Of a stretch of 64,000 nt of DNA, positions 38,249 through 59,596 are shown piece after piece. The DNA is from Spirochaetota bacterium. GTDB taxonomy: Bacteria; Spirochaetota; UBA6919; CBDBPB01. Position numbers and translations under genes: made by a program. The notes beneath the pieces are model-generated. The model was not told the origin of the DNA, did no database searches, and was given only the letters and a program-made list of their open reading frames with translations. The stretch is taken from NCBI GenBank assembly GCA_965208615.1, contig CBDBPB010000004.1, positions 416,001 to 480,000 on the forward strand. Direction: 5' to 3'. How positions within the stretch are numbered: position 1 is the first letter of the stretch; the number at the start of each line of letters is the position of its first letter.

Positions 38249-38380
38249 GACGTTTTATGATAATTTAATTATTAAGAAAGGTCAATTATTTTAAATAAGT
38301 TTTATACAAATGATGCATATAACGTAAAGATAAGTATATTTTAGATTTCTTTGTGGAACATAAAAGATAAAATATTGATG
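38249..38380 (+). repeat. Dispersed intergenic repeat, copy A (inverted homolog at 57056-57190)
   Basis: GACGTTTTATGATAATTT...CATATAACGTAAAG...TATATTTTAGATTTCTTTGTGGAACAtAAAAGATAAAATATTGATG matches the reverse complement of 57056-57190. Confidence 0.9.
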
Positions 38381-54585: not shown

Positions 54586-55286
54586 TATATACCTCCATAT
54601 TTATTTATCTCTTGTATCTTACCATAAGCTAGTCTTACTTTACGGTCTGCCTTATTTGATATATCGGCATTATGGGTAACTAACACAATAGTAATTTTAT
54701 GATATTCTCTAATATCCCATAAGAGGCTTTGTATTTCTTGAGTAGTTTTTTCATCTAGATTACCAGTAGGTTCATCAGCAAGCATTATCATCGGATCATT
54801 AATTAATGCTCTAGCAACAGCAACTCTTTGCTGTTCACCGCCTGATAGCTCATTAGGCTTATGATTAGCTCTATTTTCAAGTTTAACTTCTTTTAATAAA
54901 GCCATAGCTTTTTCTTTTGCACTTTTTAGTTTAAACTTATTAGCCAAATAAGGGAGCATAACATTTTCTAGTGCAGTAAAATCGGGCAAAAGATAGTGAA
55001 ACTGAAATACAAAACCAATATTACTATTCCTAAAAGATGAAAGTTCATCTTCCGACATATCACTAATACTTTTATTAGCAATCATAATTCTACCCCTATG
55101 AATAGAGTCCAAGCCACCTATTAGGTTAAGCAAGGTACTTTTTCCACAACCGCTTTCACCAACTATAGCTATTATTTCACTTTTGTGAATATCCAAATTA
55201 ATACCTTTTAAGACTTCTAGTGGTAGGGCAGTTAAATAGTAATTTTTAAAAAGATTTCTTATTTTTATAATCTCCATATCACTCAT
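54585..55286 (-). CDS. lolD: Lipoprotein-releasing ABC transporter ATP-binding protein
   Basis: [20 protein letters not shown] (LolD motif), [19 protein letters not shown]. Confidence 0.9.
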
Positions 55287-56622
55287 ACCTTATAACAGAG
55301 GCTATATTCTCCAAAGCACTCTTCCTTGCTGGAAAGTAAGACGCCAACATGGATACAAAAATAGAAAATATACAAACCAGTTGCAAATCTCCAAAGTGTA
55401 TATGATAAGGCAGAGCTTTTATGTGTACCAATCCACCAGAGAGAACTTCCCATTTTACATATTGTTTATTAGTTCCATATTCAACATTATGGGCGAATTT
55501 TAGTATTTCATTAACAATATACTCTGTATACTGAATGAGTTCTGCCAGTGAGCCAAGGATCAATAAGCTAAAAATACTACCTAATAGTGTTCCTATAAGT
55601 CCGATTATTAGTCCTTCGATTAGGAATATCATTCTAATTGCCTTATTTTTAACGCCAAACGATTTTAAAATACCTATTTCTTTTCTTTTATCTATAACTA
55701 CTATATTGAGATTAAGATAGATAACTAAAAAGGATGCTATTATCATAATAGCCAATACTATTTTTATAAGGTCTTTTTCCCAGTTAAAGGCATGAAGAAG
55801 GTGTCTATTTAGCTCCTTCCACGTATATATAGTTAATTCTGGGAATTCTATATTTAAGATATTTTTTATTATATCGGCATCCTCTGGATTATAAAGTTTT
55901 ATTCCTAGTCCGGTTATTGCGTTATATACTTTTCCATCAATGCGGATCTTAGTATTAAAAACAATTTTGGATGTATTAATATTGGTAAAAGCCAAATAGT
56001 TATCATATTCTGCATAACCTGATTTAAATATTCCACTAACTCTAAATTTATATATTGGTATAAACTCTTCATCCATAAACCTTTCCCTTGATATTAATAC
56101 CTCGATATCGAGTTCTTTTCCCTGTTTAATTTTATTAATATTAATATTAAGTTTTTTTGCAAGACTATATCCGATTATTATTCTAAACTTTTTCAAGCTA
56201 TAATTGCCTGCCACTAAAGAAAAGTTATCCCTAAAGTCTTTATCCTTCATATAAAGGTTAGTATTATTTCCTCTTAGAAAAACTCCATAATACTTACTAT
56301 TTTCGTGTTTCAGAAGAACTTGGGATTTATAAAATGGGATAACCATTTTAATTTTATCTTTTATTTTATTATCAGTTAGTATATGATTTTTCACAAAGTT
56401 GTAGTTTATAAATTTAGTTTTAAGTAGCTGTATATGATAATCTTTATTAATATGTTTTTTTTTAATACTCTTATGGAATCCGTTAATTACAGACATAGTA
56501 ATAATAGGGATGGCTACTGACAAGCAAACTATTACTATACCAATAACAGAGATTCTGGATATAAAGTTATTAGTTTTTTTAGATTTAAAATATTTATAGC
56601 TAATGAGCAATTCGTATTTCAT
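55279..56622 (-). CDS. LolC/LolE-family ABC permease
   Basis: ISYKYFKSKK, MSVINGF, KRKEIGILKSFG, FLIEG, SYFPARKSA...VIRYE. Start placed at ATG 56622. Confidence 0.9.
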   Translation of the reverse strand: MKYELLISYKYFKSKKTNNFISRISVIGIVIVCLSVAIPIITMSVINGFHKSIKKKHINKDYHIQLLKTKFINYNFVKNHILTDNKIKDKIKMVIPFYKSQVLLKHENSKYYGVFLRGNNTNLYMKDKDFRDNFSLVAGNYSLKKFRIIIGYSLAKKLNININKIKQGKELDIEVLISRERFMDEEFIPIYKFRVSGIFKSGYAEYDNYLAFTNINTSKIVFNTKIRIDGKVYNAITGLGIKLYNPEDADIIKNILNIEFPELTIYTWKELNRHLLHAFNWEKDLIKIVLAIMIIASFLVIYLNLNIVVIDKRKEIGILKSFGVKNKAIRMIFLIEGLIIGLIGTLLGSIFSLLILGSLAELIQYTEYIVNEILKFAHNVEYGTNKQYVKWEVLSGGLVHIKALPYHIHFGDLQLVCIFSIFVSMLASYFPARKSALENIASVIRYE

Positions 56623-56848
56623 AATTTTATTATTAAGCAGGCAGTTTTTGTTAATACCGCACACATGAATATGAAATATACATGAAAGTTAGTTAAAAGT
56701 CCATATTATTGATGATGCTGCTGTATTATTGTAGAGGTATTATAAGTCATGCGGTTATTTTTTTTTATAGTTGCCTTCAATTTGTTATATAGAGGATTAG
56801 TGTCCCCACAGGGTTTTACATAAAACGTCAATATATAATATCAAAACA

Positions 56849-57025
56849 ATCCCTCCTATTCCTTTATGGAACAACAAATCCTTTAACACTTAATAAAGGT
56901 GTATAATTCCTAGTCTCAGTAAGGGATTCTTAATAGCTCTTTAAGTGATGATTACTTGCATAAAAAGTGATATTTTGTGTTCATTACTGAGGCATTTAAA
57001 CAGCACTTAAAGAGCATAGGAGGAT
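56849..57025 (+). ncRNA. Putative structured RNA (multi-branch fold with loop-loop pseudoknot), family unknown
   Basis: Six complementary pairings in about 180 nt, including a perfect 12-bp stem and a crossing 8-10-bp pair; three G-U wobbles all favour the + strand. Confidence 0.55.
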
Positions 57026-57055
57026 AAACCGTTTGATACAAGAAAATAACTTTTT

Positions 57056-57190
57056 CATCAATATTTTATCTTTTCTGTTCCACAAAGAAATCTAAAATAT
57101 ACCTCCCTTTACGTTATATGTCCTTTTTCTATGTAAAACTCCTTATAACATAATAGGCCTTACTCAATAACTAAATTATCATAAAACGTC
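57056..57190 (-). repeat. Dispersed intergenic repeat, copy B
   Basis: Reverse complement aligns end to end with 38249-38380. Confidence 0.9.
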
Positions 57191-57257
57191 ATCTCACTAC
57201 ACTTGCCTATACAAAAAAAAAATATCTATACATTAAAGTAGCCTTTAAAAAAAATAC

Positions 57258-57286
57258 TTGACTTTTTTTAATGTTCTAGTTATACT
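57258..57286 (+). promoter_or_regulatory. Putative sigma70 promoter of the small Zn-ribbon gene
   Basis: TTGACT-N17-TATACT. Confidence 0.6.
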
Positions 57287-57347
57287 TAAATACGATTATT
57301 CAACCACTTTGGTTATCTCCTTAATAAAAACATCCAGGGGTTTACAA

Positions 57348-57518
57348 ATGGCGAGTTATATTAGTGCCAAAAAAAAAGAAAATGTTGTCGGTAAATGCTG
57401 TTCATGCGACAGTAATAAAAATATAGTAAGCTGGATCCGTGATGAATATGGAAAGTTGCAAAACTTTTGTAAGGACTGCTTCGAAGAAGCTACCGGTAAA
57501 AGAGTGTCCAAAAGATAA
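57348..57518 (+). CDS. 56-aa CxxC...CxxC zinc-ribbon small protein
   Basis: MASYISAKKKENVVGKCCSCDSNKNIVSWIRDEYGKLQNFCKDCFEEATGKRVSKR; AGGGG RBS and its own promoter. Confidence 0.7.
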   Translation: MASYISAKKKENVVGKCCSCDSNKNIVSWIRDEYGKLQNFCKDCFEEATGKRVSKR

Positions 57519-57646
57519 TTTAATAAAATTATATCTTATTACAAAACCTACATAAACCTGATAATACTCGTTCTAATAGTATAGAACAAATACACTTACA
57601 AATAGTTATAGGAATCCTTTAGTATATATTTATATAGACAATAGTA

Positions 57647-59596
57647 CTATTTGTCAGTAAGAAGACTTTCAACTCCAGCCTTGTCTAGGGACTCTTTTTC
57701 TATAAGATGCTTTGCTATTAACTCTAACTTATCCACCTTATCCATGATAAGCTTCTTAGCATCACCATAACAACTATCAATAATAGCCTTAATCTCACTG
57801 TCTATAACCTCAGCAGTCTGCTCACTATAATCCTTATGACGTGCAATCTCTTTACCAATAAATATAGGCTCATCCTTCTGACCATAAGAAAGTGGACCTA
57901 ATAGCTCACTCATACCCCATTCGCATACCATTTGTCTTGCAATTTGTGTTCCTCTCTCAATATCATTAGATGCACCATTAGTAATAGCCTCTTTGCCAAA
58001 CTTGTACTCCTCACTAATTCGGCCGCCAAATAATATCATAATCTCTTCTATACAGAATTGCCTAGAATAAGTATGACGGTCATCCTCAGGCAAAGTTTGT
58101 GTTATACCAAGAGCATTCCCTCTTGGGATAATAGATACCTTATGTAGAGAGTTAGCATTAGGTAATAAATATGCCAGTAAAGCGTGTCCAGCCTCATGAT
58201 ATGCAGTAGTTATTTTCTCTTTCTCAGTTAATACAAGACTCCTACGCTCAGGACCCATAAGAACCTTATCCTTAGCCTCTTCAAGGTCTTCCATCTGAAC
58301 CCTCTTTTTACTCTTTCTTGCGGCAATAAGTGCAGCCTCATTAACAAGATTAGCAAGATCAGCTCCTGAAAAACCAGGAGTACCCCTAGCAATAATATGT
58401 GCATCCACAGACTTTGTTAATAGTATCTTCTGAAGATGTACACCTAAAATAGCCTCTCTACCCTTTATATCAGGACGTGATACAACTATTCTCCTATCAA
58501 ATCTACCAGGCCTCAAAAGTGCCGGATCTAAAACATCAGGCCGATTAGTAGCCGCCATAACAATTACAGTTTCATCACTATCAAAACCATCCATCTCAAC
58601 AAGCATCTGATTCAAAGTCTGTTCTCTTTCGTCGTGTCCACCACCATATCCAGCTCCACGCGTTCGTCCTACTGCATCCAACTCATCAATAAACAAAATA
58701 CAAGGCGCATTCTTCTTCCCCTGCTCAAAAAGATCCCGTACTCTACTAGCCCCTACTCCAACAAACATCTCAACAAACTCAGAACCACTCATATTAAAAA
58801 ATGGACGATTAGCTTCACCAGCAACAGATCTAGCCAATAAAGTCTTACCAGTCCCAGGTGGACCCATTAAAAGAACTCCCCTGGGTATTTTTGCTCCAAG
58901 CTTTTTAAATTTCTCAGGCTCTTTAAGAAATTCAACAGTTTCCTGAAGCTCAGTCTTAGCCTCTTCTACCCCAGCAACATCCTTAAAAGTAATAGACTTT
59001 TGAGAATTCTTAACTAATTTAGCTCTTGTCTTACCAAAAGAAAGTGCCTTATTACCAGTCCCCTGAATCTGGCGGAACATAAAAAACCATAATATTCCAA
59101 AAATTATAAGTCCAGGTATAACCGTTGTTAAAATGGTTGCAAAAATACTACTACTCTTTGGCTCAGCATTAAAAATAATCTTTTCGTTTTCTGGCTTATC
59201 CTTATTAACCTTTTCTAATTTATTAACAAGGTTATTATGGTCTATAGGACTATAGGTAACAAACCTTAAAGTAGGTCGTCCTTTAACTTTTTTAGCTGGT
59301 CCCCTATGATATCTTTTGTAATCCCTATAGAGACTACTTTCTAAAACAACTTCACCTTTAATTTCCTGATCGATTATTGTAATACTTTTCCATTCTACAT
59401 TTTCCTCTTCTACCAGAATAAGAAATTCTGAATAAGGAAGTTTTATATCATTTATACTGGATTCGCTAAAAATATATATAAAAAAAAGCAAACCCAAGAC
59501 TATTAAAGCTATAAAAGTAAAATTTTTATTAGGTTTTGGTCCATCTCCTTTCGGCGAAAAAGGATTCTTATTTTTTTCTTCATTGTTATCAGGCAT
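57647..59596 (-). CDS. ftsH: ATP-dependent zinc metalloprotease FtsH
   Basis: Two TM segments, [32 protein letters not shown]. Confidence 0.98.

Follow-up and report, generated by a model that had tools for sequence, protein, structure and literature searches.

A strongly folded intergenic segment of a Spirochaetota genome lies in an old copy of a dispersed repeat family, probably a natural mini-Mu-like element

The segment studied here (56849-57025) is intergenic, with a divergently oriented ABC permease gene on its left and a small Cys-rich open reading frame (ORF) on its right. All positions without a contig name refer to the window, i.e., the whole 64-kb stretch of DNA that was analysed. 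The features of the locus are as follows.

55279-56664, - strand: neighbouring gene for an FtsX/MacB-type ABC permease, divergent from the element (Pfam FtsX, 6.3e-15, and MacB_PCD)
56665-56812, no strand: left flank, with no recognisable transposon end; similarity to the left modules of other copies is limited to ~20-30 nt beside the core
56813-57128, + strand: repeat core, common to 40 other full copies, delimited by their coverage
56818-56828, no strand: left arm of the inner 11-bp inverted repeat, ACATAAAACGT, which pairs with 57111-57121
56849-57025, + strand: multi-stem fold of the preliminary description, real in the window copy only (minimum free energy -50.8 kcal/mol, z -5.08)
56936-57015, + strand: "12-bp stem", perfect in the window copy only
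56996-57058, - strand: antisense 20-codon ORF (MKKLFSC...), without coding signal as judged from changes by codon position
57018-57023, + strand: AGGAGG, only in the window copy (ATAGGAGGAT in 1 of 41 copies; the others mostly have AAGGGA or TAGGGA)
57033-57095, + strand: putative 20-codon ORF kept in the family, judged from start and stop counts and the substitution pattern
57096-57124, - strand: weak promoter-like site facing the small ORF (AGGACA-17-TATATT, 9 of 12 matches)
57111-57121, no strand: right arm of the inner 11-bp inverted repeat, ACGTTATATGT, partner of the left arm
57129-57250, + strand: degenerate right-hand linker, common to some copies only (coverage 3-15; 10 matches, 5 of them beside cores)
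57258-57286, + strand: promoter-like site of the 56-aa ORF, from a promoter scan (TTGACT-17-TATACT)
57348-57518, + strand: neighbouring Cys-rich small ORF of 56 aa, with no Pfam match

In the window copy, the features quoted in the preliminary description were all located. The closing stem is formed by CCTCCTAT (56852-59) and ATAGGAGG (57016-23), and it is directly abutted by the 12-bp stem of GCTCTTTAAGTG (56936-47) and CACTTAAAGAGC (57004-15), which is perfect in this copy. The three small hairpins were also found, and the loop at 56913-22 is complementary over 10 nt to 56984-93, as required for the proposed pseudoknot. AGGAGG lies 9 nt upstream of the TTG at 57033, which opens the 20-codon ORF that runs to 57095. 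The 177-nt segment folds on the + strand with -50.8 kcal/mol, and none of 200 dinucleotide shuffles was as good. The - strand folds with -45.0 kcal/mol (z -3.67), and this difference agrees with the suggestion that an asymmetry of G-U pairs favours a + strand transcript. The lack of a match to a known RNA was also borne out, since no Rfam family reached its gathering score in the whole 64-kb window. An Rfam scan of 56600-57400 with a permissive E-value returned eukaryotic snoRNA and miRNA models only, with E values of at least 0.48.

The segment had been called an orphan, which is wrong. The search covered the window's own genome assembly (2.46 Mb, 9 contigs, 31% GC), where 56800-57100 as a query gave 40 matches with 83-100% identity, and blastn placed the segment in a repeat with 41 full copies (>250 nt) and 15 partial copies. 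Coverage by the other copies climbs to 39-40 across 56833-57113 and drops outside, and the median identity of the 41 copies to the window copy is 85%. All copies are intergenic, no ORF of at least 90 aa overlaps any of them, and all six frames of the composite repeat are closed. Fourteen of the loci lie between divergent genes, 12 are tandem co-oriented, 11 are tandem antisense, 3 are convergent and one adjoins the end of a contig; at 27 of the 41 loci the gene downstream has the same orientation as the repeat. Another piece of the core, a 65-nt fragment corresponding to core positions 244-308 with 94% identity, is present elsewhere in the window at ~38316-38380 (G000:C4:454316-454380).

Conservation is uneven along the core. 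The mean pairwise identity is 94.6% in its central 85 nt versus 84-86% elsewhere, and the number of Fitch changes per column is 1.15 versus 2.6-3.0. This pattern suggests a requirement in cis, exchange between copies, or a host function. The inner 11-bp arms are nearly invariant in the family and form the outer helix predicted by RNAalifold (columns 30-41 with 333-343).

The repeat appears only in this genome among the DNA that was searched. It was found in none of 40 relatives, the nearest of which belong to the same order only, and a blastn search for distant matches in 50,697 phage records gave no match to the repeat. Two scans of metagenome contigs and one each of genome and viral contigs with an exact pattern returned 0, 2, 1 and 4 loci, which are chance matches that share the pattern alone, with unmatched surroundings. 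Among sequencing runs, the stretch was present in one DNA run and in no listed RNA run. No joints were seen in the contigs of this DNA run, whose depth of ~5x is uninformative on inversion or excision.

The fold was then evaluated across alignment A1 (41 copies, 375 columns), in which the 52 base pairs of the preliminary description were counted. In 79.4% of the cells the two bases can pair, which is expected because the structure was derived from one row of the alignment. Changes on both sides of a pair were found in 19 cells among the 41 copies, compared with 20 and 15 in controls slid by +3 and -2, respectively. For at least nine Watson-Crick pairs of the window copy, the corresponding bases do not pair in 27-40 of the 41 copies. 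The three central pairs of the 12-bp stem (columns 154-156 with 221-223) are unpaired in 34-40 copies, three pairs of the closing stem in 27-35, and one pair in each of two hairpins in 36 of 41. The 12-bp stem is perfect in only 1 of the 41 copies, and RNAalifold gave a consensus energy of only -19.8 kcal/mol over the 375 columns, with a compensatory change in 2 of 47 pairs.

In a co-evolution test, the 5' strand of each copy was paired with its own 3' strand and with the 3' strand of every other copy. The energies with own and swapped strands were -7.30 and -7.25 kcal/mol for the closing stem, the proposed mask of the Shine-Dalgarno (SD) sequence, -7.47 and -7.22 kcal/mol for the pseudoknot strands, and -10.60 and -10.61 kcal/mol for the strands of the 12-bp stem. 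Own and swapped values do not differ in any of the three, and the hypervariable 5' and 3' strands show no co-variation. When the homologous 177 nt of the 41 copies were each compared with 60 shuffles, the median z was -0.89; z was below -3 in three copies, and the window copy was the most extreme. Since the family median is -0.89, the excess stability of the window copy is that of the best of 41 sequences and is not a family trait. The long stems are apparently inverted repeats within the repeat that by chance are perfect in the window copy, and not a conserved RNA structure. This outcome warns that a striking fold of a single sequence can be the luckiest of 41 repeat copies and vanish when the family is aligned.

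Repeat modules also make up the flanks of the core. An intact member begins with a left end of ~100-190 nt, followed by the ~330-bp core, a linker, in many cases a tandem array, and finally a right end. The outer ends are inverted repeats that start with TG and finish with CA, and each contains two AAAYGTTYTAR-like motifs ~22 bp apart; in one 792-bp member the terminal inverted repeats are perfect over 24 bp. Tandem arrays are located downstream of many cores and are built of near-identical units of 110-263 nt, each with a right-end-like motif. Examples of such arrays are G000:C1:41798-42668, C4:172178-173131 and C7:333904-335062.

With a profile of the ends, ends were recognised at 26 of the 41 cores (both ends at 10, the left only at 14 and the right only at 2), and 15 cores, the window copy included, are without a recognisable end. 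Within 2.6 kb of a core, 61 of 62 end matches face inward, a count that is inflated because every array unit holds a right-end-like motif, and an orientation that the copies partly have in common by descent. At the window copy, the best match to the end profile in 56300-57700 had an E value of 0.2, and neither side has a recognisable end. The local alignment scores of its left flank were 11-19, compared with a mean of 12.7 for shuffled sequences (sd 2.2, maximum 25). Target duplications of 5-6 bp were found in none of the 10 composites with both ends, the best case being a match at 5 of 6 positions.

Two other origins of the repeat were considered and rejected. No resident insertion sequence was found as a source, as the ORFs of at least 90 aa include no multi-copy transposase besides the phage module described below. 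A decayed protein gene was also considered. On the - strand the array units can be read as protein-like, in a frame that stop codons interrupt in most copies, and no gene was found that carries in intact form the tail read from one array.

On contig C7, one core copy is split by an insert of 35,349 bp, which has TG..CA ends and a 6-bp duplication.

G000:C7:424829-460177: prophage locus (loci L065 and L066)

By its ends and predicted genes, the insert is a Mu/B3-like transposable prophage. The combination of TG-CA ends and a 6-bp duplication is the B3/Tn552-type footprint of transposable prophages of Leptospira and Leptospiraceae, as given in the cited part of PMC8705779. The prophage encodes a DDE transposase of 532 aa, whose rve-like core scores 23.4 bits and is below the Pfam cut-off, and an AAA_22 ATPase of 282 aa, the AAA+ partner, with weak similarity to TniB. 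Its other genes encode a DUF3102 protein, a large terminase, a Mu F-like protein, a tape measure protein and baseplate J. A sigma-70-family protein is encoded beside one end of the prophage, and a SUKH-3 immunity domain protein is encoded as well. The genome also contains a second, diverged transposable prophage (G000:C7 ~139129-166119), which is 76-92% identical in pieces, and, on another contig (G000:C3:10639-15823), a 98.5% identical second copy of the transposition module that is 5.2 kb long.

The ends of the element are homologous to both ends of the prophage, with 77-80% identity over 54-61 nt. The composite left end aligns from base 1 of the phage (47/61 identity, E 3e-7) and, when inverted, from its last base (43/54 identity, E 9e-7). 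Two AAAYGTTYTAR-like motifs ~22 bp apart are shared by the prophage ends and the composite ends. The search for core homology inside the prophage gave only AT-rich matches of 38-42 nt (E 0.003-0.006).

The small ORF behind the fold starts with TTG in 34 and with ATG in 4 of the 41 copies. At its stop position, 27 copies have TAA, 3 have TGA and 11 have TGG, and the TGG extends the ORF to 35-39 aa. The antisense ORF is intact in 33 of 40 copies, with 91, 53 and 33 changes at codon positions 1, 2 and 3 (51, 36 and 19 in independent pairs). The promoter scan found 4 sites like the weak one on the - strand, compared with 5.4 expected in shuffles. Strictly 3-periodic substitutions are confined to 45 nt (A1 columns 270-314, window 57057-57092), and their pattern fits the + strand small ORF and the antisense frame equally.

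The preliminary description had proposed a structured non-coding RNA, in the form of a riboswitch, a ribozyme or an sRNA, in which a pseudoknot is formed and the ribosome-binding site is sequestered. Such an RNA is consistent with the z of -5.08 of the window copy, with the better folding of the + strand than of the - strand in both the window copy and the family consensus, with the many one-sided changes that preserve G-U pairs on the + strand, and with the central 85-nt block being the best conserved part. However, no Rfam family reached its threshold in the 64-kb window or in the scan of 56600-57400, double-sided changes number 19 versus 20 in the +3 slid control, compensatory change is limited to 2 of 47 pairs of a consensus with only -19.8 kcal/mol, and the closing stem, the pseudoknot and the 12-bp stem each form as well with swapped strands as with own ones. 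A riboswitch also fits poorly because the 41 copies adjoin unrelated genes. A typical family member folds no better than its shuffles (median z -0.89). The proposal is unsupported; taken on its own terms it is already largely refuted, and we regard it as highly improbable. A different module could ride on the repeat, namely a small translated ORF (20 aa, or 35-39 aa by read-through) with a ribosome-binding site masked by pairing to the 5' portion of the transcript and an antisense RNA from the - strand promoter, resembling a type I toxin-antitoxin system or a leader peptide. The reading frame remains open in 38 of 40 copies, with NILTFLFHKEI retained at the C-terminus of the peptide. A TTG or ATG start is found in 38 of 41 copies, with a purine-rich GGGA or GGAG 8-9 nt upstream, and the - strand has a promoter-like site directed towards the ORF. 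Among 20 independent sister pairs, the second half of the ORF has 7, 3 and 31 changes at codon positions 1, 2 and 3, with 18 synonymous and 18 non-synonymous changes, a pattern that resembles coding sequence. The antisense frame, however, has the same third positions and scores slightly better (23 synonymous to 13 non-synonymous), which makes the strand of the signal ambiguous. Moreover, the first half is without coding signal (2 synonymous to 26 non-synonymous), the most divergent copy retains the DNA of the 3' half of the ORF but no start codon, the masking of the SD sequence shows no co-variation (own -7.30, swapped -7.25 kcal/mol), the hydrophobic run is only ~10 residues long, and neither 20-aa peptide has a Pfam or NCBIfam match. 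We therefore consider this module distinctly unlikely.

The repeat might also be a regulatory cassette of the host, located upstream of surface-lipoprotein and other genes and spread by segmental duplication or gene conversion; in one form of this explanation, a promoter is inverted between the 11-bp inner repeats. The positions of the copies are in line with it, as 27 of 41 loci have a co-oriented gene downstream and only 3 of 40 loci lie between convergent genes. Downstream neighbours are lipoprotein-like at 12 of 41 loci, compared with 130 of 2087 ORFs (6.2%), an enrichment of about five-fold by a crude pattern, which hints at a host-level role. Seven of the downstream genes belong to one paralogue family, the nearly invariant 11-bp inverted repeats bracket the core, and the high homoplasy suggests exchange between copies. 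Against an invertible promoter, the core is flipped relative to the flanking modules in 0 of 41 copies. A cassette of any form has to contend with the absence of a strong promoter conserved in the core and with a distance of 70-1900 nt to the downstream genes, which are themselves preceded by promoter-like sites, and it leaves the phage-like TG..CA ends unexplained. This origin is unlikely. A more far-reaching proposal combines phage and host, in that a Mu/B3-like phage would have spawned a natural mini-phage transposon family of ~40 copies in an uncultured spirochaete-like bacterium, whose well conserved inner core would be a working module and no passive cargo, either a cis-acting transposition enhancer or a small-ORF or antisense cassette used by the host beside surface-lipoprotein genes; we hold it to be speculative and rather unlikely.

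The explanation that we prefer, with a probability of roughly 0.62, is that the window segment represents the interior of an old copy, now without ends, of a repeat specific to this lineage, which would be a natural mini-Mu-like, non-autonomous element family whose fold is not conserved. The repeat family, the homology of its ends, the prophage and the lack of structural conservation were each observed directly, and a natural mini-Mu-like element mobilised in trans appears to be the most economical reading of them. The dispersed intergenic copies, the closed frames, the lack of any other multi-copy transposase and the ends homologous to the phage point to such an element. Against it, no target duplications were found in the 10 composites with both ends, 15 of 41 cores have no recognisable end, and no homology to the core was detected in the phage. 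In addition, the central 85 nt exceed the remainder of the core in conservation, which is unusual for passive cargo. Seven of the downstream genes are paralogous to each other, so that segmental duplication, and not transposition, may account for some of the copies. In the mini-Mu-like model, the DDE transposase of the prophage and its AAA+ helper would bind the TG/CA ends of the element in trans, and the phage transposase would then move it as a natural mini-Mu; the conserved central block may have a role in cis in transposition. The window copy itself appears to be a decayed relic that has lost its ends and would no longer be mobile. The preliminary description had also offered the RNA module of a non-autonomous mobile element as an origin. 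The evidence favours the mobile element, and nothing indicates that the module acts as an RNA.

A dispersed element family with ends matching those of a resident transposable phage is of moderate interest. Full-text searches found no report of natural MITE-like derivatives of transposable phages, although papers beyond the collection that was searched, or supplementary files, could contain one. If the phage transposase does mobilise the family, phage transposition would be tied to how intergenic regions beside surface-protein genes are shaped in a little-known lineage.

Among known systems, the core resembles type I toxin-antitoxin loci (e.g., hok/sok, ibs/sib and aapA/isoA) by description, in that a very short ORF lies behind a long folded leader; this leader could hide the ribosome-binding site, and an antisense promoter may be present. 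Unlike them, the repeat has ~40 copies, its masking helix is without co-variation, the hydrophobic run is only ~10 residues, and it is ambiguous on which strand the coding-like signal lies.

Bacterial MITEs and other non-autonomous derivatives of DDE elements include the Correia elements, RUP, ERIC and the Tn3-derived TIMEs. Like them, the repeat is present in dozens of dispersed intergenic copies with no internal transposase, its terminal inverted repeats are related to an autonomous element of the same genome, and its internal inverted repeats would give long stem-loops if transcribed. It differs from MITEs in that its ends resemble a transposable phage and not an insertion sequence, its units are 0.8-2 kb long versus <0.6 kb, its interior is better conserved than its ends, its right end is often in tandem arrays, and no target duplications were found. 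A general review of such elements is PMC3184786.

Mini-Mu and mini-D3112 are laboratory deletion derivatives that keep only the phage ends, with or without the enhancer, according to the cited parts of PMC8705779 and PMC5847225. As in those derivatives, the repeat combines phage-type TG..CA ends and repeated putative transposase-binding motifs with the absence of phage genes, and it would likewise depend on the phage transposase and a MuB-type ATPase in trans. Compared with these engineered constructs, the repeat family would be natural and amplified, and no homology to the enhancer was found in it. The Leptospiraceae study (PMC8705779) deals with whole prophages, and its main text is without mention of MITEs or miniature elements; the window segment itself is no prophage. 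The resident 35-kb prophage, on the other hand, is like the prophages of that study in its size class, its TG..CA ends and 6-bp duplication, its DDE transposase with an AAA+ partner, and its spirochaete-like host.
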